Shown one piece after another: positions 2,894 to 27,445 of a DNA stretch of 64,000 bases (position 1 is its first letter; every line of letters starts with the position of its first letter). The translations under genes and the position numbers were made by a program. The stretch lies in assembly GCA_964634365.1 (NCBI GenBank), contig CAZWJU010000001.1, positions 167,028-231,027 of the forward strand, given 5' to 3'. The notes below the pieces were generated by a model that was given only the letters and a program-made list of their open reading frames with translations, was not told where the DNA came from and searched no databases. Origin of the DNA: an uncultured Candidatus Saccharibacteria bacterium (GTDB lineage: Bacteria > Patescibacteriota > Minisyncoccia > Phycocordibacterales > UBA9973).

Positions 2894-3901
2894 ATGCAAA
2901 ATAACAAAACTATTGTACTAACAGGAGATAGACCAACCGGAAGGCTCCACTTGGGACACCTTGTAGGATCTATACAAAAAAGAGTTGCTCTGGCAGAAGA
3001 ATCAGACAAGTCTTTTTACATGATTGCAGACATCCAAGCTCTAACTGACAACGCAGACAATCCTGACAAAGTTCGCAATAACGTACTAGAAGTAGCGCTC
3101 GACAATCTAGCATGTGGCCTAAAACCTGAAAAAACTATTATGTACATCCAGTCAGAAATTCCTGAGATCGCAGAACTAACAGTATTGTTTATGAACTTAG
3201 TCACTTTAGCGAGACTAAAAAGAAATCCTACAGTAAAAGCTGAGATGCAACAGAAAGGCTACGGTGAAGACGTGCCGGCAGGTTTTTTAGCTTATCCAAT
3301 ATCTCAAGCTGCTGATATTTTAATTATGAAATCAAATCTAATCCCAGTAGGAGAAGATCAGTTTCCAGTTATCGAACAAGCAAATGAGATAGTAGATACT
3401 TTCAATCGTCTTTATGGAAATGTTTTTGATCGTATAAAACATATTAGTGGTGATACAGCAAGACTTGTGGGGACAGATGGCAACGCAAAAATGTCTAAAT
3501 CTCTCGGCAATTGTATATACTTGGCGGATAGTGATGAGACTATAGAAGAGAAAGTTATGGGCATGTATACAGACCCAAATCATATTCGCGTGGAAGATCC
3601 TGGTAAAGTAGAAGGGAATGTAGTTTTTACATATCTAGATATTTTTGACCCAAACAAAGATGAAGTTGCAGATCTTAAAAAACAATACGAAAAAGGCGGG
3701 CTCGGTGATGTAGTACTTAAAAAAAGGCTCATAGAAGTCCTAAAAGAAATAATCTCTCCGATACGCGAAAGACGAGAGCAACTCGCAAAAGATCCAAAAA
3801 TGATCATGGATCTACTTGAAGAAGGAACAAAAGAAGCTCGCAAAGTTGCTAGCGAAACTATGCGTGAGGTTCGTAGTGCACTAAAAATAGATTATTTTTA
3901 G
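2894..3901 (+). CDS. trpS: Tryptophanyl-tRNA synthetase
   Basis: The product has TGDRPTGRLHLGH (HIGH) and KMSKS motifs. The start was set at MQNNK (the ORF-track upstream extension looks non-coding). Confidence 0.9.
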   Translation: MQNNKTIVLTGDRPTGRLHLGHLVGSIQKRVALAEESDKSFYMIADIQALTDNADNPDKVRNNVLEVALDNLACGLKPEKTIMYIQSEIPEIAELTVLFMNLVTLARLKRNPTVKAEMQQKGYGEDVPAGFLAYPISQAADILIMKSNLIPVGEDQFPVIEQANEIVDTFNRLYGNVFDRIKHISGDTARLVGTDGNAKMSKSLGNCIYLADSDETIEEKVMGMYTDPNHIRVEDPGKVEGNVVFTYLDIFDPNKDEVADLKKQYEKGGLGDVVLKKRLIEVLKEIISPIRERREQLAKDPKMIMDLLEEGTKEARKVASETMREVRSALKIDYF

Positions 3902-3960
3902 TAAATTGACTTTTAGTAAAAAACTTATATAATGTGAGTAGATAAAAGCTTTTTCGTAAT

Positions 3961-5772
3961 ATGAATATAAAAAATAAAGAAAAAAAATTGGCTTTCAAGG
4001 ATTACAGAGACGGCATTAGAACAATCTGGCAGTTGATCACGGTGAAATACAAAAGAGAAATCTGGACACTTGTGATACTGTCTTTTTTTATTGCCATACT
4101 CGACGGTATAGTACCTCTCATATCTGGTAACTTCTTCGATAGACTCGTAGAGGTCAAAACAAATGCGAGCGCCGTATGGATATCGCTTGGCGTATTGATT
4201 GTAGTCACAACCATATCTTCTTTTGGTCAAAGATGGAAATACACTAAAAGCGACCTGGTAAACTACAAAATCATAACTGACTACCATGCAAATGTTGCAG
4301 CGAAACTTGTTCGTCTACCTATGTCATATCTAAACAGTAGACCGATGAGTGAGATCGAGCAAAAGTGCCAAAGAGCAGGGAACAATCTCGAGAACATGTT
4401 CCGAGATGTTTTAATAGAAATTCTTCCTGCTTTTTTAGGTATAATCGTAGCTTTTGTAACGGTCTTCACTATCAACACAACACTTTCGCTTATACTTCTC
4501 GGCGGGGTCTTGGCTTACATACTCGTAATACTGCAAACAGTGGGAGATGGTGCAAAGCTCCAACGCGAAAACCAGAAGCAATGGGTTAACGCATGGATCG
4601 CAAGATCAGATGGCTTGTACAATATTCCAACAGTAAAACAATTTGCTGCCGAAGATTTTGAAACAGAAAAAAATAGAAAGAACTTTACGGAAAAAGTCTT
4701 TGGTGCGCAGTTTAATCTCTGGAAGATGTGGAGCAAGATAAATCTCTGGCAGAAAATTATTATCTTGGTTACACAAACTATTGTTCTGTCTATGTCAGTA
4801 GGGTTTCTAAAAAACGATATTCTCTCTGCCGGACAAGTGATAGCTTTCAATGCTTATGTTGGTATGGTGTTTGGTCCGTTTTTACGCATGGGAAATATGT
4901 GGCGAACAATCCAAAATTCGATCATCAACGTACATGATGCAAACGAAATACTATCCATGACACCAGAAGATTATACGAAAGACAGCGCTGCTGCTAAAAA
5001 AATTAGCGGTGAAGTTGAGTTTAGGGGTGTCACTTTCTATCACGATGAGAGAAAAGTTATTTTGGACAATTTAAACTTCAAGGCAAAAGCCGGTTCTGTT
5101 GTCGCCTTTGTCGGTAAAACTGGATCAGGTAAAACATCTCTTACAGAACTAATATACCGATTCCACGAACCAACAAAAGGAGAGATCCTTGTAGATGGCA
5201 TAAATATTGGCGAATACAATCTAACATCTCTAAGATCTCAAATTGGAATCGTTCCACAAGAGCCTGTTCTTTTCGATTCAACTATCCGAAACAACATAAT
5301 GTATCCAAAAAGTAAGGTTAGTCAAAAAATTCTTGATGAAGTTGCTCGCAAGGCAGATTTGCTTGAATTCATAAAAGATCAACCTGATGGATGGGATACG
5401 GTAGTTGGAGACAGAGGCGTAAAACTATCTGGTGGACAACGCCAACGTATTGCAATCGCTCGAGCACTCTTGGCGAATCCTAAAATTTTAATTTTAGATG
5501 AATCTACATCAGCACTTGATGCAGAAACTCAGAAAAAAATTGAAGATTCTCTAAGGGAGCTCATGAAGGACAAAACTACTTTCATAGTTGCACACAGACT
5601 TAGTGCGGTACGCGATGCAGACAAAATATGTGTACTCCACAAAGGCAAGATTGTCGAAGAAGGAAATCATGAGGAGCTAATACAGATTCCAAATGGACGA
5701 TACAGAAAACTATATGAACTTCAGTACAGAGAAGCAGAGATAATCGAAGCTGAAAAAGTACTAGAAGAATAA
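3961..5772 (+). CDS. ABC exporter, fused permease/ATPase (MsbA/multidrug-like)
   Basis: A six-TM N-terminal half is followed by Walker A GKTGSGKTS, the LSGGQRQR signature and Walker B ILILDE. Confidence 0.85.
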   Translation: MNIKNKEKKLAFKDYRDGIRTIWQLITVKYKREIWTLVILSFFIAILDGIVPLISGNFFDRLVEVKTNASAVWISLGVLIVVTTISSFGQRWKYTKSDLVNYKIITDYHANVAAKLVRLPMSYLNSRPMSEIEQKCQRAGNNLENMFRDVLIEILPAFLGIIVAFVTVFTINTTLSLILLGGVLAYILVILQTVGDGAKLQRENQKQWVNAWIARSDGLYNIPTVKQFAAEDFETEKNRKNFTEKVFGAQFNLWKMWSKINLWQKIIILVTQTIVLSMSVGFLKNDILSAGQVIAFNAYVGMVFGPFLRMGNMWRTIQNSIINVHDANEILSMTPEDYTKDSAAAKKISGEVEFRGVTFYHDERKVILDNLNFKAKAGSVVAFVGKTGSGKTSLTELIYRFHEPTKGEILVDGINIGEYNLTSLRSQIGIVPQEPVLFDSTIRNNIMYPKSKVSQKILDEVARKADLLEFIKDQPDGWDTVVGDRGVKLSGGQRQRIAIARALLANPKILILDESTSALDAETQKKIEDSLRELMKDKTTFIVAHRLSAVRDADKICVLHKGKIVEEGNHEELIQIPNGRYRKLYELQYREAEIIEAEKVLEE

Positions 5773-7315: not shown

Positions 7316-8338
7316 CTAAAGGAGGTCAAGGAGTAAATCCTTGGCTTCTTTTAATTTACCCTCATCAAGATTTGATATCGTATCAGCATCTGAGTGATAC
7401 ACGGTCATAAGCTGATCAATATTTGAATAAATCGTAATCATTTTATTTTTATATTTATCAAATTGCCTAATTGGAAAAGCTAGATATATTATTTCTGGAT
7501 TTGAATCTAATTTAGGAGATCCGTTTCCTACACAATCTATGGGTATAATTTTCTCTGCAATATCAAAAAGATTCGAATATTTATCTTCAAATACTCTAAA
7601 ACCATGACCCCAATATGTAGGTCTGTCATAAGATAGTTCTTCGTTTGGGTCAAATACAAAAAGTGATTCTTTTATGATTTCTGGGTTCTCGATTATCGCA
7701 CTGAGTGCAACAGCGACACCAGAAGCATTATCAATCGCACCTACAGATATTGAATCGTAGTGGGCAAAGATTATATTTTTTGGATCTTTCAAATTACCCA
7801 CCAATATGTGAGCAACTTCTGTTTCAATTTTTTCTACTTTTACATCACCTTCAATATTTTTTGCATTTATTATTTTAGGTATATCTTTTTTTGATACTGC
7901 AATTGCTGGTGCAAAATAAAAATTTGAACATGAAATTTCTTCAGAATATGGATTAAAATTGATATTCTTGTTATCAAGGTTAAATCTAGACGGGGTTGTA
8001 GAGCTTAAAATACAAGACTTGGAATCAATCTTGCCTTCAGTATACGAGCAACCTTTACACTCAACACTTACTCCATCAACAACTAAAACAGAACTACAAA
8101 CTGGGACGACAGATTTAAATCTATCTAAGACAAAAGGGATACTACTGCTATTCAATGTATCTTCTATATATTTTTGAACCATTAAAAGATCGGCCCCTTG
8201 TCGATTTTTATACTTTACGATCTCTTTGATTATATCTGTTATATTTACCATAATTTTATATTTTAAATAAAATATTCCCCAGTACCAATAATAAGTACAC
8301 GGTAAGCACTGGGGAATACCAATAATTAAGAATGCCAA
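7316..8338 (-). CDS. M28-family zinc peptidase-like protein (start uncertain; may be the Met at about 8254)
   Basis: The M28 ligand motifs are present: AHYDS, GAIDNASG, NEE and YHSDAD. Confidence 0.6.
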   Translation of the reverse strand: MAFLIIGIPQCLPCTYYWYWGIFYLKYKIMVNITDIIKEIVKYKNRQGADLLMVQKYIEDTLNSSSIPFVLDRFKSVVPVCSSVLVVDGVSVECKGCSYTEGKIDSKSCILSSTTPSRFNLDNKNINFNPYSEEISCSNFYFAPAIAVSKKDIPKIINAKNIEGDVKVEKIETEVAHILVGNLKDPKNIIFAHYDSISVGAIDNASGVAVALSAIIENPEIIKESLFVFDPNEELSYDRPTYWGHGFRVFEDKYSNLFDIAEKIIPIDCVGNGSPKLDSNPEIIYLAFPIRQFDKYKNKMITIYSNIDQLMTVYHSDADTISNLDEGKLKEAKDLLLDLL

Positions 8339-9306
8339 TCGATAACTGCATCTGCTATATCAGAAAAGAACGAAACAGAATCTCCAGTTTTTTTATCTAA
8401 AAAACGAGATGTTATAGAATCGATCGCACTCGGACAATTAATTACATGCTTAGGCATACATAACATTTTATCATCAAGCGGTGGAACTTTCAGAACCAGA
8501 GGCTTAAATCCTGTACCACTTTCTATCAAGTTCACAGTGCTTTCAAAAAGCTTTTTAGCCTCACTAACCTGAGAAAGTTCGTTGTCATAAGTCTCAAGCA
8601 GAATCATAGAACCATCAATAAACCAACTAAAATACAAAGGATAATACCAATCAGAAATTGGACGATAATTTACACCCTCAATATCAACTTCTGATATATG
8701 CTTTTTCTTTGAAACTCTATTTTCAATAGAGAATACATAATCAGGTTTTTTTACTGATGAACGAACGTAGATCCTATCTAGATTTGATACGTCAACCAAT
8801 GCATCACTTTCACCAAATACTTTAGCGCGTAACCCAAAATGAAATTCCGGCAAGGTCTCTCCTGGTATATGTGAACTAGTTTTAATCATAGACAAAGGCA
8901 GTCCTGAATAATCCATAATTGACCCGTCGACGATACGCTCACCATAAAAATACAAATTCTTTTTTCTACCATAATCAGCCCATTTGAAATTTAAATAAGA
9001 TCTTTTTTCGTGATTATTGGGAGAAAAAGTATCGTCTAAAAAAGGCAGGGATAATAGGGGATAACCCAAAACATTGGCACCTATCTTGCAAGCCAAATCC
9101 TCTGTCCTTACAGAAGGAATCTGCCTACAAAGCGTCAGGTGAGTTTTATCTCCATCTAATCCAAAATATTTTTTAGTAATTCCGATAAAATCTTTTATTC
9201 CATAAGATCTTTCGATCCAGGAATTAATAGATTTGTGAATTTCGTCTCGTCTAACAAGACGGTCTTTAATAATAGACTCAAGAGTTTCTAATTTTGTGAT
9301 GTACAT
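8326..9306 (-). CDS. Uncharacterized protein, no recognisable domain
   Basis: This 326-aa ORF is coding-like and overlaps the downstream M28 gene by 13 nt, so the pair is likely an operon. Confidence 0.55.
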   Translation of the reverse strand: MYITKLETLESIIKDRLVRRDEIHKSINSWIERSYGIKDFIGITKKYFGLDGDKTHLTLCRQIPSVRTEDLACKIGANVLGYPLLSLPFLDDTFSPNNHEKRSYLNFKWADYGRKKNLYFYGERIVDGSIMDYSGLPLSMIKTSSHIPGETLPEFHFGLRAKVFGESDALVDVSNLDRIYVRSSVKKPDYVFSIENRVSKKKHISEVDIEGVNYRPISDWYYPLYFSWFIDGSMILLETYDNELSQVSEAKKLFESTVNLIESGTGFKPLVLKVPPLDDKMLCMPKHVINCPSAIDSITSRFLDKKTGDSVSFFSDIADAVIDWHS

Positions 9307-9327
9307 AAGACATGTAATTTAAATTGT

Positions 9328-9360
9328 GAAAAGAACAAAGCCCCTCTAATATCAGGGGCT
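9328..9360 (-). terminator. Intrinsic terminator-like hairpin in the 5' leader of gene 8326..9306
   Basis: On the minus-strand RNA the hairpin AGCCCCUGAUAUUAGAGGGGCU is followed by UUUGUUCUUUU, about 21 nt before the start codon. Confidence 0.5.
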
Positions 9361-9494
9361 CGTGTTTGAGTTTAAAAATATTTTAGCTATTACTAGTTAG
9401 GCAAAATAATTGAACGCAAAAATGAACCCCCGATTTTTCCTCGGTAATGTGTCCATTTAAAATTCATTTTTGCTACTATATTCATGTACTTCGG

Positions 9495-9522
9495 AGTATA
9501 CCTAGGGTGTAAATTTTGTCAA
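9495..9522 (-). promoter_or_regulatory. Candidate promoter TTGACA-16-TATACT (minus strand) driving a ~180-nt leader
   Basis: The reverse-complement of 9495..9522 reads ttgacaaaatttacaccctaggtatact. Confidence 0.45.
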
Positions 9523-9581
9523 TGTGTATAAATAAATCCGAAGCTTTTAATATCTAGTTTTTTAGCTTACAATAGCTCAAT

Positions 9582-10325
9582 ATGGAAGATGCGCCTACAA
9601 ACATCTATACAATAAAAACTGAAGCTTTTTCAGGTCCTTTTGACCTACTGCTCGAGCTAATCGAAAACAAAAAACTCTTTGTAAATGAAATCTCACTTGC
9701 AGAAATAACCGCCGATTATATAGAACATGTACGCAAGATGGAGTCGCTCAATCTAGGCCAGGCAACACACTTTGCAGTTGTTGCAGCTACATTGATTCTA
9801 ATCAAATCAAAATCTCTACTACCAAACCTTCCGCTTACAAAAGAAGAAGAAACTTCAATTGACGATCTAGAACTCAGACTAAAACTTTACCAAGCTATCA
9901 AAGATATTGCTCCTTTTATAAAAGAGAAGTATGGAAAAACAGTGCTTTTGTCGCTACCAGATAGACCAGTAGGATCAGTTCTATTTAGTCCAGATAAAAA
10001 TCTAAAAAAAGAAAGTGTCGAGTCCGCAATACGAAACGTACTCGGGTCTTTGCCAGTGAAAGTAAACTTACCTGAGGTAACAGTAAAAACAATGGTAAGT
10101 ATAGAAGAGATGATTTCTTCTCTTGAAGAGCGCATAACAAACACTATGACACTTTCTTTTAAAGAATTTAGTCATTTAGATAGCAAAGAGGTAAAGGAGG
10201 TAAAAATCCATACAATAGTTTCGTTCCTAGCGCTACTAGAGCTTGTGCGGACCGGAATTATTGATGTTGTGCAAACAAATGCGTATGATGATATAACAAT
10301 TAGTAAACAAATAGAAAATATATGA
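9582..10325 (+). CDS. scpA: Segregation and condensation protein A
   Basis: The product has an FSGPFDLLLELI N-terminal motif and a kleisin-like fold. Confidence 0.85.
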   Translation: MEDAPTNIYTIKTEAFSGPFDLLLELIENKKLFVNEISLAEITADYIEHVRKMESLNLGQATHFAVVAATLILIKSKSLLPNLPLTKEEETSIDDLELRLKLYQAIKDIAPFIKEKYGKTVLLSLPDRPVGSVLFSPDKNLKKESVESAIRNVLGSLPVKVNLPEVTVKTMVSIEEMISSLEERITNTMTLSFKEFSHLDSKEVKEVKIHTIVSFLALLELVRTGIIDVVQTNAYDDITISKQIENI

Positions 10326-26161: not shown

Positions 26162-26210
26162 GGATTTATTTTAACAAAAAACAACCCAAATTATAAGTAT
26201 TTTTAGATAC

Positions 26211-26239
26211 TTGACAAATGCATATAAATATGCTATACT
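26211..26239 (+). promoter_or_regulatory. Consensus promoter TTGACA-17-TGcTATACT (extended -10)
   Basis: The sequence ttgacaaatgcatataaatatgctatact matches the consensus exactly. Confidence 0.6.
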
Positions 26240-26245
26240 TCTTCT

Positions 26246-26385
26246 AGATGTTTAACACACCGGTTCATATCTATCTTTGTCGTTGGGACTTTGAGCTGTA
26301 GCTCACCCCAACTTCATGGAGAGGCCTAAGAAACCTCTCGTCAACTCACGGCTGCCCGATCAAAAGGGCGGCTTTGTTTTTATTT
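26246..26385 (+). ncRNA. Candidate small RNA 1 (~140 nt), unknown class
   Basis: The unit has its own consensus promoter, a nested hairpin gttggg..gagct-gt-agctc..cccaac, a hairpin gagagg-cctaagaaa-cctctc, and an intrinsic terminator ggctgccc-gatcaaaa-gggcggc plus a T-tract. There is no plausible ORF. Confidence 0.45.
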
Positions 26386-26398
26386 AAAATTAGTATAC

Positions 26399-26427
26399 TT
26401 GACAAATAAATACTAATATGCTATGAT
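26399..26427 (+). promoter_or_regulatory. Consensus promoter TTGACA-17-TGcTATGAT (extended -10)
   Basis: The sequence ttgacaaataaatactaatatgctatgat matches the consensus. Confidence 0.6.
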
Positions 26428-26433
26428 ATAGGC

Positions 26434-26555
26434 ATACTCGTACAAATGAACGCGAACATAAAATGCCGTGGACCCACAGTCTCGGCAAAAAACCTAGAGG
26501 GATAAAACCCTCAATCGACTCACAGCTATCCCGTAAGATGGCTGTGTTTTTTTAT
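26434..26555 (+). ncRNA. Candidate small RNA 2 (~120 nt), paralog of sRNA 1
   Basis: It shares the 3' architecture of sRNA 1: hairpin gaggg-ataaaa-ccctc, then tcgactcacagct, then terminator cagctatc-ccgtaa-gatggctg plus T8. Its T-tract overlaps the stop of convergent trhO. Confidence 0.45.
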
Positions 26556-27445
26556 TTAGCCAAAACTTTTTCAGTTTTTTTAGACAGACAGTCTTCCGAG
26601 CAAAACCCTTCCCCATTTTCTGTTAGACAATTTTCACAACATATAAAATGTTTGTGACAAAGTAGGTTCCCGCAGTTCACATAATTTTCTGAAGTGCTGC
26701 CACAGTTGTCACACTTTCCTATTGCCTCATGACTGTCGCCATCGAAGTGCATTACTTTTCTTTTATCAAAAACATAGAGGCTTCCTTTGAAATTTTCTCC
26801 TGGATATTTTTCCATATAACTTACTATTCCTCCATCGAGCTGATACACATCTTCAAATCCAACTTTCTTCAAAAATCCTGATGCCTTTTCGCATCGCACT
26901 CCACCAGTACATACTGTTAGTACAGTTTTGTCTTTTAGATCTTTGAGCTCATCTACCTTTTCTCGTAAGTCACGAAAATTTTCAAGCCCTGGGAAAATAG
27001 TTCCTTCGAACTTTCCACTTTTAAGCTCGTAGTCATTTCTCATATCAACAATATAAAAATCTTTGTTTTCTTCATACCATTTTTTCAAATCTTCTGGCTT
27101 CAATCTTTTACCAGTGAGCTTGTTTGGGTTTATGTCACCCTCTTTACCTAAATGCAGAGAGACTATCTCGTCGCGCACTTTCACAGACAGTCTAGGAAAA
27201 GCATCGCCAGTCCCCTCACTTCTCTTCCAGTGAATATCGGAAAAACCCCGGCGCTTACTCATCCAAGTTACGTATTTTTCTATATTTTCACTCTCACCTT
27301 CAAGCGTAGCGTTGATACCCTCTTCTGCTACTATAGTGCGTCCAGTAAGCCCTAAAACCTCGCATATACCCCTCTGCATACCCATTTCAACCTTAGGGTC
27401 CTTGATTTTAGTGTATTTGTAAAAAAGTAAAACTGTATATTTCAT
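26552..27445 (-). CDS. trhO: tRNA uridine(34) hydroxylase, rhodanese-domain protein (UPF0176/YceA family)
   Basis: The product has LLFYKY and GINATL motifs, a rhodanese CTGGVRCE active site and a C-terminal Cys-rich tail. Confidence 0.8.
   Translation of the reverse strand: MKYTVLLFYKYTKIKDPKVEMGMQRGICEVLGLTGRTIVAEEGINATLEGESENIEKYVTWMSKRRGFSDIHWKRSEGTGDAFPRLSVKVRDEIVSLHLGKEGDINPNKLTGKRLKPEDLKKWYEENKDFYIVDMRNDYELKSGKFEGTIFPGLENFRDLREKVDELKDLKDKTVLTVCTGGVRCEKASGFLKKVGFEDVYQLDGGIVSYMEKYPGENFKGSLYVFDKRKVMHFDGDSHEAIGKCDNCGSTSENYVNCGNLLCHKHFICCENCLTENGEGFCSEDCLSKKTEKVLAK

Follow-up and report, generated by a model that had tools for sequence, protein, structure and literature searches.

A short leader in front of a two-gene cassette is probably a ribosome-mediated, leader-peptide transcription attenuator of the trp/his/phe type, controlling an operon that encodes an uncharacterized 326-aa protein (U326) and an aminopeptidase. 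The leader lies in a 64-kb stretch of DNA (64,000 nucleotides, hereafter the window). Of all strong terminators in the window, only that of the leader precedes a gene and does not also mark the end of a co-directional gene further upstream. The elements of the leader, their conservation, their alternative pairings and the geometry of these pairings were obtained by computation, and the coordinates are given in Table 1. The same order of promoter, short ORF, hairpins, terminator and U326 was found in about 45 non-redundant leaders from distant clades of Patescibacteria, and terminator-like hairpins equivalent to that of the window are present in the relatives. Because this layout is kept while the flanking genes differ, we conclude that the leader travels with the cassette. 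An initial annotation had recognized a layout suited to attenuation; this proposal can now be made specific, with the short ORF as the putative sensor and with 1:2, 2:3 and 3:4 pairings identified.

Table 1. Features of the leader and the cassette, in positions of the window.
Feature	Position	Strand	Basis
−35 hexamer TTGACA	9517..9522	minus	11/12 promoter match; conservation
−10 hexamer TATACT	9495..9500	minus	predicted transcription start near 9488
Leader-peptide ORF, 30 codons + UAG, encoding MNIVAKMNFKWTHYRGKIGGSFLRSIILPN	9393..9485	minus	ORF comparison with other loci
Region 1, 5′ arm of helix P1 (GCAAAAAUGAAUUU), pairing with region 2	9460..9473	minus	MFE folds
Proposed stall site F9-K10-W11-T12-H13-Y14; UGG at 9455..9453	9444..9461	minus	motif recurrence and TGG frame bias
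Region 2 (AUCGGGGGUUCAUUUUUGCGUU), pairing with region 1 (P1) or region 3 (antiterminator)	9413..9434	minus	folds
Region 3 (AACUCAAACACGAGCCCCUGAU), holding the terminator 5′ arm; antiterminator partner of region 2	9351..9372	minus	folds
Intrinsic terminator hairpin (regions 3:4), GAGCCCCU-GAUAUUAG-AGGGGCUU	9338..9361	minus	fold and terminator scan
U-rich tail UGUUCUUUUC, holding conserved GTTCTTT (9336..9330)	9328..9337	minus	motif count in leaders
U326, 326-aa uncharacterized protein, first regulated gene	8326..9306	minus	homologue clusters and HMM search
Intercistronic hairpin UUCCCCAGU ... ACUGGGGAA, then AUUUUAUUUAAA	8275..8316	minus	compensatory changes in six relatives
M28-family zinc aminopeptidase, 311 aa, ATG 8251, PA-like inserted domain, second regulated gene	7316..8251	minus	ligands and fold

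Promoter, terminator and genes of the cassette

The promoter TTGACA-16-TATACT (9522..9495, minus strand), which the initial annotation had described as a consensus promoter upstream of the gene at 8326..9306, matches the consensus at 11 of 12 positions and is the top promoter-like site in 8 kb. Since promoter-like matches are not enriched over these 8 kb as a whole (32 found vs 27 expected), its significance rests on conservation. Neither hexamer varies in relatives with U326 proteins of 84% and 64% identity, TTGACA at −35 is unchanged in loci L025, L030 and L029, and TTGAC[A/T/G] recurs 5′ of the distal short ORF in 25 units. The ATG of the leader ORF is located only 9 nt past the −10 box, with the predicted 5′ end about 3 nt away, and the ORF is therefore essentially leaderless. 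The AUG-initiated ORF noted earlier at the predicted 5′ end is thus present, but it comprises 30 codons plus the stop rather than 32. A spacing of 6–10 nt between the −10 box and the ATG was seen in 20 of the 25 units with a recognizable promoter, and nearly all of the ~45 leaders of U326 homologues contain a comparable short ORF.

The strong intrinsic terminator annotated about 21 nt before the start codon was likewise recovered (9361..9338 plus tail). Its hairpin has 8 bp, five of them G-C pairs, within an extended stem at 9365..9335, and the tail ends (9328) 21 nt upstream of the U326 ATG at 9306. In 29 of 45 leaders the motif GTTC[ACT]TT was found no more than 75 nt from the start codon, where 0.03 occurrences per leader would be expected. 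The U-tract is imperfect (UUUGUUCUUUU); that transcription terminates there, that the short ORF is translated and that leaderless initiation operates in these organisms are assumptions.

A promoter scan of the 189 nt that separate the −10 box from the U326 ATG revealed no second promoter-like site, so U326 appears to be reachable only by read-through, and the hairpin is unlikely to be the terminator of an unrelated sRNA lacking read-through. This result bears on the idea that the leader forms a small-RNA or small-protein gene of its own, terminator included, while U326 is transcribed from elsewhere. Stand-alone units do exist in this genome, because two orphan units, each with a promoter, a transcript of ~130 nt and a terminator and with no downstream gene, are present in the window at 26200..26560. 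However, these orphan units are independent hairpins without alternative pairing, whereas the antiterminator complementarity of the leader is significant, and the leader always lies directly 5′ of U326, co-oriented with it, in unrelated genomic contexts. We consider an independent unit highly improbable.

The U326 gene is real, with 35 full-length homologue clusters and 539 HMM matches; the family is restricted to Patescibacteria, and the ORF is never disrupted in the relatives. The initial annotation recognized no domain in the protein, and both profile searches and structure prediction agree that it has no characterized relative. U326 showed no match in Pfam, NCBIfam, PADLOC or PHROG, a PDB profile search gave none, and the distant HMM matches are also devoid of Pfam domains. 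The predicted model has a pLDDT of 94.6 and its best Foldseek match in the PDB reached only E = 1.3e-3 and TM 0.27; U326 is confidently predicted to adopt a fold without a known relative.

On the other side of a 74-nt intergenic spacer, the second gene encodes a protein in which H164, D166, D174, E204, E205 and D239 are invariant among 38 sequences; together with a final His, H286, they correspond to the co-catalytic zinc ligands (H, D, E, D, H) and the catalytic D and E of M28. The zinc-ligand motifs align to those of YwaD, the Pfam PF04389 score is 35.1 bits (cut-off 21.3), and the AlphaFold model (pLDDT 95.6) matches PDB entries 2ek8 (Foldseek E = 9.5e-17) and 6hc6 (TM 0.68). Ligands, Pfam family and fold all support the earlier assignment as an M28 zinc peptidase with a complete ligand set. 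The protein shares its fold and zinc ligand set with PA-domain M28 aminopeptidases (B. subtilis BSAP/YwaD, the Aneurinibacillus aminopeptidase and P. aeruginosa PaAP), with Foldseek E values of 1e-16 to 1e-15 and TM up to 0.68. It differs from them in its length of 311 aa, in the lack of a signal peptide, in an identity of only ~13–15%, in its constant association with U326 and in the last His, H286, which is kept in 33 of the 38 sequences and replaced by Gln in 5. Given this length and the missing signal peptide, it is presumably cytoplasmic. The 13-nt overlap of the two genes in the initial annotation depended on a TTG at 8338 and is not supported, as relatives start at the ATG equivalent to 8251. 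The spacer contains a covarying hairpin rather than conserved coding sequence, and this putative element would act as a partial terminator or in mRNA processing or stability. The partner of U326 is an M28 aminopeptidase in nearly all loci, with an M1 aminopeptidase instead in a Giovannonibacteria clade.

Alternative pairings in the leader

The leader is more structured than expected by chance (z = −4.8, 0/200 shuffles). In the window, the antiterminator pairs 9434..9413 with 9372..9351 in segments of 11 + 4 + 3 bp, and 9473..9460 is the alternative partner. The region 2:3 duplex has an energy of −16.2 kcal/mol compared to a shuffle mean of −10.7 (z = −2.3, p = 0.02), a statistic that is modest when the window is taken alone. 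Across units, the 2:3 complementarity has a median z of −3.8 against shuffles, with p ≤ 0.01 in 74% of units, although the units are phylogenetically related and such counts, here and elsewhere, overstate the number of independent observations. When the fold was ended before region 4, the 5′ arm of the terminator paired with an upstream partner in 43 of 47 units. This partner lies downstream of the UGG codon in 36 of the 43 and, in nearly all of these 36, also inside the short ORF. It starts 15–31 nt from the UGG in 31 of the 36 (median 23 over all 43).

We also masked the RNA that a ribosome stalled at the UGG, or at the stop codon, would hide, and then refolded the remainder. Masking up to UGG+15 changed the MFE structure from terminator to antiterminator in ~45% of 51 units, compared to ~1% of dinucleotide shuffles, and left the terminator as the MFE structure in roughly half the units. 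The window, L025 and L030 are among those that flip, forming the 11-bp helix AUCGGGGGUUC:GAGCCCCUGAU. With the ribosome placed at the stop codon, the terminator was retained in essentially all units. Region 1 is predicted to fall within the footprint of a ribosome stalled at the UGG. In many units, the window included, more than 15 nt separate the end of region 2 from the stop codon, which suggests that termination without a stall relies on kinetic coupling or on re-pairing of regions 1 and 2 rather than on a ribosome covering region 2.

The pairings are maintained while their sequences change. Relative to the window, L029 carries a C-to-U change in region 3, for which regions 2 and 4 both compensate by G-to-A; the stem GAGCCCC/GGGGCUU becomes GAGCUCC/GGAGCUC, with the matching G-to-A in region 2. 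In L034/L072, L035, L040, L059, L020, L018 and L002 the helix sequences are wholly different and the architecture is the same.

This combination of changing sequence and constant architecture is relevant to a further explanation, in which a metabolite riboswitch or a protein-dependent antiterminator sets the choice of terminator and the short ORF is incidental. The strong structure of the leader would suit such a mechanism, and the conserved GTTCTTT(A)ACA beside the proximal hairpin could bind a protein. However, neither the window nor 19 related loci gave a match at gathering threshold to any Rfam family, the T-box and all known riboswitches included. The best scores were those of MicC and Phe_leader (E = 1.3 and 2.7), far below the gathering scores; Phe_leader scored 17.1 bits compared to a required 55. 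The clades share no sequence core, and nothing resembling an aptamer, beyond the in-frame Trp codon and the geometry of the helices, for which reason we rejected a riboswitch or T-box. The fixed 6–10 nt spacing of the ATG and the frame bias of TGG would also be left unexplained. This explanation, which includes the riboswitch alternative of the initial annotation, is scarcely probable. The Rfam leader families Trp_, His_, Phe_, Leu_ and Thr_leader are similar in how they work, but the U326 leader, with no match at their gathering scores, is a member of none of them.

The short ORF and the candidate signal

The only features common to 47 non-redundant leader peptides are a polar N-terminus and an [F/Y]-x-W-[H/L/F] motif, present in the leader ORFs in the form [F/Y]-[K/F/Y]-W-[H/L/F]. 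TGG is in frame with the upstream ATG in 60 of 169 cases, compared to 22/169 and 36/169 in the shifted frames. The Trp codon is near-universal and stands in an aromatic context; most leaders have one Trp and no tandem run, and L075 has none at all. The candidate regulatory residues are mostly W, H, F and Y, with Cys-rich leaders in L009, L016 and L062 and F, I and L in L011 and L023; MACLCCL and MACFCCIIC are examples of Cys-rich leaders in some clades.

A conserved Trp might also act through the nascent peptide. In a TnaC-like sensor, the [F/Y]-x-W-[H/L] motif would arrest the ribosome in reaction to a small molecule, for instance a metabolite of the host or a free amino acid; only the input would then differ from tRNA charging, with the RNA switch itself unchanged. 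TnaC (MNILHICVTSKWFNIDNKIVDHRP) itself depends on a single conserved Trp and, in the E. coli tna operon, a short peptide with one critical Trp controls downstream transcription for catabolism or scavenging, as proposed here. Conservation in the U326 leaders is at the level of residues around the single Trp (−2, −1, +1) rather than of a run of identical codons, and the masking results and the geometry of the partner fit any stall at the Trp site. On the other hand, the motif is loose at +1, where H, L, F, A, Y or T is found, the residues 3′ of it are free to change frame, and the Cys-rich or Phe/Ile-rich tracts of several clades fit codon or tRNA sensing better. A nascent-peptide sensor is unlikely. 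Compared to TnaC itself, the 47 non-redundant peptides show no conserved Asp or Pro at TnaC-like spacing. TnaC responds to free tryptophan in the peptidyl-transferase centre and prevents Rho-dependent termination, whereas the U326 leader has an intrinsic terminator and an RNA antiterminator.

Compared to L030, the window carries a −1 indel, followed by a +1 indel 27 nt further on. This compensated frameshift converts GNRGFIFAFN (L030) into KIGGSFLRSI (window), rewriting 10 of 30 residues, after which frame and stop are regained. The nucleotides of region 2 are 100% identical between the window and L030, and identical in L025 as well, despite the different frame, and the ATTTTTGCG motif falls into three reading frames, depending on the lineage. 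A functional leader peptide is disfavoured because the frameshift alters ten residues while the nucleotides stay identical, which argues that the 3′ half of the leader ORF is probably under nucleotide rather than peptide constraint.

The frameshift and the three reading frames also speak against the view that the short ORFs encode RiPP-like or pheromone-like precursors, which U326 would modify and the aminopeptidase would trim, with a leaky terminator setting the ratio of precursor to enzyme. Tandem short ORFs, each with its own hairpin, are found in many loci (L004, L011, L012–L015, L017–L024 and L074; up to two copies per locus), the ORFs adjoin genes for a peptidase and an enzyme-like protein of unknown fold, and a K-[L/V]-I-F-A-L-like stretch is kept in one frame in most lineages, all of which would suit precursor peptides. 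However, the 3′ half of the ORF is the strand with two alternative helices and shows covariation with the terminator, no signal peptide, transporter, RRE-like domain or known RiPP enzyme domain was detected in either cassette enzyme, and the genes flanking the cassette vary between loci and are housekeeping genes rather than genes for export or immunity. Precursor peptides are thus very unlikely. Among the functions suggested by the initial annotation, the compensated frameshift likewise disfavours a maturation or immunity pair, and a nutrient-responsive system fits best.

Proposed attenuation and its meaning for Patescibacteria

For the attenuator that we favour, we infer from these patterns that the short ORF is translated and that ribosomes stall in it, and on the same grounds we propose a signal and a physiological role for the cassette. 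Transcription would start ~7 nt past TATACT, so that the transcript begins almost at the AUG of the 30-codon ORF. With plentiful charged tRNA, the ribosome would pass the F-K-W-T-H-Y cluster and then region 2; behind it, region 1 would re-pair with region 2 (P1), the terminator 3:4 would form, and RNA polymerase would stop at 9338..9328, yielding a transcript of ~155 nt. A stall at the UGG or a neighbouring codon would instead cover region 1 and leave region 2, which starts 21 nt downstream, free to pair with region 3. No terminator would then form, and transcription would continue into U326 and the M28 aminopeptidase. The signal is most likely scarce Trp-tRNA or, more broadly, scarcity of aromatic or His tRNAs, with Phe/Ile/Leu or Cys as possible alternatives in some clades. 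The output is most likely the release of amino acids from peptides inside the cell. The constant aminopeptidase partner (M28, or M1 in one clade) suggests starvation-induced peptide scavenging.

This design resembles the classical attenuators of Proteobacteria and Actinobacteria (trpL, hisL, pheL, leuL, thrL, ilvL) in its short ORF with regulatory codons, in the four-region logic of a 1:2 pairing, a 2:3 antiterminator and a 3:4 intrinsic terminator, and in a stall placed so that the paused ribosome frees region 2. The rhizobial trpL leader has a polar N-terminus followed by I-W-W-W, and the U326 leaders are similar in style. The U326 leader differs in having no sequence or covariance-model similarity to these attenuators, usually a single Trp in an aromatic context where they have codon runs, a leaderless short ORF and often tandem units. 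The classical targets are biosynthetic operons, whereas here they are U326 and an aminopeptidase in a Patescibacteria symbiont. The T-box of Firmicutes, which controls genes for aminoacyl-tRNA synthetases, transporters and peptidases, follows the same logic, from uncharged tRNA through antitermination to amino-acid supply, and has the same terminator/antiterminator output. Unlike the T-box, the U326 leader has no T-box sequence, Stem I, specifier loop or RF00230 match, and sensing would require translation of the short ORF.

Canestrari et al. (bioRxiv 10.1101/834739) describe a ‘Cys ribulon’ of mycobacteria in which the first cistron is likewise a leaderless short ORF, and pausing at codons for the scarce amino acid remodels the RNA and turns on the operon genes. 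The leaders described there are polycysteine, and some clades of U326 leaders are Cys-rich as well. As reported there, however, the control is translational, with stalled ribosomes unmasking a sequestered ribosome-binding site, and the targets belong to cysteine metabolism, whereas the output of the U326 leader is an intrinsic terminator with a U-rich tail in front of a peptidase cassette.

A more speculative reading takes the aromatic leader peptides as the natural substrates of U326 and the aminopeptidase. The system would then be one of translation-coupled peptide maturation or signalling, in which synthesis of the peptide gates its own processing enzymes. In a milder version, U326 would be a peptidase of new fold or an enzyme of aromatic amino-acid salvage, and obligate symbionts would have an amino-acid-starvation ‘ribulon’ with U326 as its core output. 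We hold this reading to be quite unlikely.

Ultra-small symbionts make up the Patescibacteria (CPR), a very large radiation that is mostly uncultured and that, by published description, lacks the pathways to synthesize amino acids, nucleotides and lipids. We found no paper on attenuation in Patescibacteria and, in the literature and Rfam, no description of the U326 leader. The leader most likely represents a textbook control mechanism in a new lineage, placed before a new kind of target, and its ~45 diverse examples make it a candidate new RNA leader family for RNA database curation. It also offers a testable lead for the unannotated U326 family (539 HMM representatives), namely induction under Trp or aromatic limitation; a further lead is the constant aminopeptidase partner, which is M28, or M1 by non-orthologous replacement. 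The leader is carried by a cultured organism, Minisyncoccus archaeiphilus PMX.108 (locus L011), which provides a route to experiment. If the leader is an attenuator as proposed, it indicates that Patescibacteria gauge amino-acid supply by ribosome stalling through transcription-translation coupling, and that they respond by inducing peptide-degrading enzymes rather than biosynthesis, in keeping with a dependence on host-derived peptides.

Leader organisation in the window and across Patescibacteria

The initial annotation placed a promoter, a leader and a terminator ahead of two genes, and this arrangement proved real: a near-consensus promoter and a hairpin with a U-rich tail are present, and both are kept in relatives. 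Because consensus-like matches are common in AT-rich DNA (32 promoter-like matches were found, compared with 27 expected), the weight of the promoter comes from its conservation. The intergenic region is ~95% identical in relatives whose U326, the 326-aa product of the first cassette gene, is 84% identical, and a relative at 64% U326 identity keeps both hexamers, several leader blocks and the terminator. When the 64-kb window was scanned for terminators, the leader terminator was the only strong one standing ahead of a gene without following one, and no further terminator preceding a gene was detected. The leader ORF had been given as 32 codons and is two codons shorter. The leader folds with z = −4.8 relative to shuffled sequences. 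In the full-leader fold, the 5′ end (GUACAUGAAUAU) pairs with the U326 start region (AUGUCUUAUGUAC). We consider this pairing a coincidence, since GUACAU is self-complementary, AUGUAC follows from the Met-Tyr with which U326 invariably starts, and neither the related locus L029 nor other clades have the pairing.

Features of the cassette, its leader and other elements (window positions)
Feature	Position or length	Strand	Remarks
scpA	9582..10325	+	divergent to U326
Intergenic region scpA–U326	275 nt		
Promoter TTGACA-16-TATACT	9522..9495	−	11/12 positions match; best promoter-like site in 8 kb
Leader ORF, 30 codons	9485..9393	−	start 9 nt past −10 box
Terminator hairpin, U-rich tail following	9361..9338	−	
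GTTCTTT motif	9330..9336	−	forms terminator tail in the window
U326	9306..8326	−	
Intercistronic hairpin, U326 stop to M28 start	8316..8275	−	compensatory changes in six relatives; followed by ATTTTATTTAAA
U326–M28 spacer	74 nt		
M28-like gene	8251..7316	−	AspRS gene convergent beyond it
Two paralogous tandem orphan units	26200..26560	+	in gap between two minus-strand genes

Loci carrying U326 homologues were collected with their flanks from species-representative genomes (24) and metagenomes (39), together with assemblies encoding particular homologues. Despite differing flanks, the 150–450 nt upstream of U326 always showed the same organisation. A promoter of the form TTGAC[A/T/G]-17-TAnnnT stands first, and the ATG of a short ORF lies 6–10 nt past the −10 box in 20 of the 25 units with a recognisable promoter. 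The short ORFs (18–55 codons) encode a polar N-terminus and then a Trp-centred aromatic patch, and are followed by one or two hairpins and a G+C-rich terminator. At many loci two such units stand in series, with a promoter on the distal unit only. More distant units have this architecture in common, not the sequence. Only four distinct sequences could be aligned with the window leader, and MAFFT misaligned the 3′ arm of L029; evidence for pairing was obtained from per-unit shuffle tests in place of a covariance model and formal pair counts.

Alternative pairing in the leader RNA

The leader RNA can be divided into four regions that form helix P1 (1:2), an antiterminator (2:3) and the terminator (3:4). 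Computation established the component parts and their conservation, as well as the alternative pairings and their geometry. In the unconstrained fold of the window leader, 9473..9460 pairs with 9429..9416 (P1) and the terminator forms. When the first 48–50 nt were masked, as by a ribosome decoding the UGG codon at 9455..9453, the optimal fold paired 9434..9413 with 9372..9351 (11 + 4 + 3 bp) and the terminator was gone. Across 51 units, masking at UGG flipped the terminator to the antiterminator in ~45%, compared with ~1% of dinucleotide-shuffled controls, and extending the mask to the stop codon left the terminator intact in essentially all of them. The 2:3 complementarity exceeded that of shuffled sequences with a family median z of −3.8 and p ≤ 0.01 in 74% of units; for the window alone, z was −2.3 (p = 0.02).

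When the RNA was folded only as far as the terminator loop, the 5′ arm of the terminator found an upstream partner in 43 of 47 units. The partner lay downstream of the Trp codon in 36 of these 43, and in nearly all of the 36 it was also within the short ORF. It began 15–31 nt from the Trp codon in 31 of the 36 (median 23 over all 43), a spacing that is just beyond the footprint of a stalled ribosome. The helices are of unrelated sequence in different clades, for example GAGAGUUGGUG:CACCAGCUCUU, AUGAAGUCGGUUUUG:AAAAAUCGGCUUCAU and GGUCAGCUUUGG:CCAAAGCUGGCU; thus, the helices have covaried completely and the architecture has persisted. From the window to L029, a C in region 3 becomes U, and regions 2 and 4 each carry the corresponding G-to-A change; a strand with two alternative partners is expected to show this pattern.

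The element is quite probably a ribosome-mediated transcription attenuator of the trp/his/phe type, for which we infer translation of the short ORF, stalling and the efficiency of termination. A ribosome stalled at the Trp/aromatic cluster would sequester region 1, so that regions 2 and 3 could pair and read-through into U326 and the aminopeptidase would be allowed. With translation unimpeded (or, in a design like that of the window, with no translation at all), the terminator would form. The initial annotation, which had proposed an attenuator or a riboswitch, was essentially right about attenuation, and its reading is here sharpened to a leader-peptide attenuator sensing Trp or aromatic amino acids. 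As for a riboswitch, Rfam searches of the window, the leader alone and 19 related loci, run with both gathering and permissive thresholds, gave nothing but tRNAs and noise below threshold.

Two further kinds of element were seen. Of 45 leaders, 29 carry the motif GTTC[T/C/A]TT, often TGTTCTTTAACA, 20–49 nt ahead of the U326 start (0.03 expected per leader). In several clades it stands apart from the hairpin, and it is missing from distal tandem units, so it belongs to the 5′ UTR of U326, not to the termination signal, and may be a second control site. It fits neither an anti-Shine-Dalgarno mimic, nor a complement of a leader segment, nor a promoter −35 box. The orphan units at 26.2–26.55 kb are a different kind of element. 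Each has a consensus promoter (TTGACA-17-TATACT or TATGAT), a transcript of ~130 nt, a strong terminator (26350..26373 and 26521..26546), an initial short leaderless ORF (MFNTPVHIYLCRWDFEL and MNANIKCRGPTVSAKNLEG) and independent hairpins (z = −3.4 and −5.0). No alternative pairing, Rfam match or co-directional downstream gene was found for them; each is probably a lineage-specific small RNA or small-protein gene.

Constraint on the short ORF and the signal probably sensed

Among 47 non-redundant leader peptides, the sole common feature is [F/Y]-[K/F/Y]-W-[H/L/F]. In the family leaders, TGG is in frame with an upstream ATG in 60 of 169 cases, compared with 22 and 36 of 169 in the shifted frames. 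A RiPP-like or otherwise functional peptide would be an alternative product of such an ORF. Compared with its close relative L030, the window lacks 1 nt in a hairpin loop and has an extra 1 nt at a point 27 nt beyond; ten codons are thereby read in another frame (KIGGSFLRSI in the window, GNRGFIFAFN in L030) before frame and stop are restored (ILP...), and the nucleotides of region 2 are identical throughout. Moreover, the window and the related loci L025 and L005 each read the conserved ATTTTTGCG block in a different frame. Together, the compensated frameshift and the three-frame block indicate that what is constrained in the 3′ half of the ORF is the RNA and the openness of the frame, and not the encoded peptide. 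As judged from these sequence comparisons, this argues against a functional peptide, at least for the 3′ half, and such a constraint at the RNA level is a prediction of the leader-peptide attenuator.

Charged tRNA-Trp is the likeliest quantity for this attenuator to sense, and His, Phe and Tyr would contribute. Ligand-induced arrest of the TnaC kind is a live sub-alternative to tRNA sensing. The leaders of some clades are Cys-rich (MACLCCL, MACFCCIIC) or Phe/Ile-rich (KLFCLFII, KFFLFII), which fits a general response to amino-acid supply tuned to differing limiting residues. In one related locus (L073, 1735..2097), a gene of the Trp-repressor family (PF01371) lies divergently upstream of a U326 homologue that has no adjacent M28 gene. 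The gene is anecdotal, since tblastn found none in the other loci or the window.

In its working the element resembles the classical leader-peptide attenuators, but it belongs to none of the Rfam leader families. The mycobacterial polycysteine attenuators (bioRxiv 10.1101/834739) likewise have a leaderless short ORF. Their output is described as translational, a ribosome-binding site being unmasked; the U326 leader instead has an intrinsic terminator. T-box leaders follow a common physiological logic, but their defining elements are all missing here.

The putatively regulated cassette and its genomic setting

The initial annotation had recognised no domain in the 326-aa protein, and this holds in family, profile and structure searches. 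U326 had no match in Pfam, NCBIfam, PADLOC or PHROGs, PDB sequence and profile searches gave nothing significant, and its distant HMM matches were likewise without Pfam domains. Its AlphaFold model is very confident (pLDDT 94.6, pTM 0.92), and the best Foldseek hit in the PDB was a vague Rossmann-like match (E = 1.3e-3, TM 0.27). The family comprises 539 representatives at E ≤ 1e-3, almost all of 310–340 aa. The pattern of invariant residues (R16, R61, E69, D70, D92, K101, H156, D172, S174, W220, Y221, Y222, E238, T239 and Y240) suggests an enzyme.

The second gene had been read as an M28 zinc peptidase, correctly: because of its fold match and conserved zinc ligand set, the partner is a true M28 aminopeptidase that carries a PA-like insert (model pLDDT 95.6; Foldseek E = 1e-16 to the Aneurinibacillus aminopeptidase and B. 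subtilis BSAP). The reported 13-nt gene overlap does not stand. From gene calls in relatives, the M28 start is almost certainly ATG 8251 and not TTG 8338; moreover, what the spacer contains is not conserved coding sequence but a hairpin showing compensatory changes. This conserved hairpin is a candidate internal partial terminator, which may attenuate the M28 portion of the mRNA, or a candidate element for the processing or stability of that portion.

U326 and M28 are adjacent at nearly every locus with sufficient downstream sequence. In the Giovannonibacteria clade (L006, 5043..7631; also L045–L048 and L067), an 863-aa M1 aminopeptidase (Peptidase_M1_N, M1 and ERAP1_C domains) occupies the position of M28, and the Trp-His leader is retained. 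This non-orthologous swap indicates that U326 needs aminopeptidase activity as its partner. Neither U326 nor M28 has a hydrophobic, signal-peptide-like segment at its N-terminus.

The window (G+C ~37%) holds compact housekeeping genes, such as ScpA/ScpB and a 431-aa class II (D/K/N-type) aminoacyl-tRNA synthetase (called AspRS). Homologues of U326 and M28 all come from Patescibacteria (CPR) MAGs, mostly Paceibacteria/Parcubacteria, and from Minisyncoccus archaeiphilus, which is in culture. In its strain PMX.108, grown in co-culture with Methanospirillum hungatei, the locus (L011; NZ_AP038758.1, around 684.4–693.4 kb) has two units in tandem. The leader matched nothing when searched as DNA against phage genomes, and a phage origin was rejected. 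Flanking genes vary by clade (scpA/AspRS, FUR/Zip, insertion within a ribosomal-protein operon). At L075 (1..5984), the leader-U326-M28 cassette and a diacylglycerol-kinase gene are inserted between the L2 and S19 genes, a placement suggesting that the cassette moves as a unit. At another locus (L004), the two tandem leader units are separated from the U326 homologue by a 93-codon ORF (3717..3998), whose end is 3 nt before the U326 start.

Full-text literature searches returned no report of attenuation in Patescibacteria/CPR; the mechanism is a textbook one, and what is new is the lineage in which it occurs, the family of leaders and the cassette under control. Because the lineage is described as being without amino-acid biosynthesis pathways, the most economical reading of the cassette is that it would serve starvation-induced intracellular breakdown of peptides, releasing scarce amino acids.
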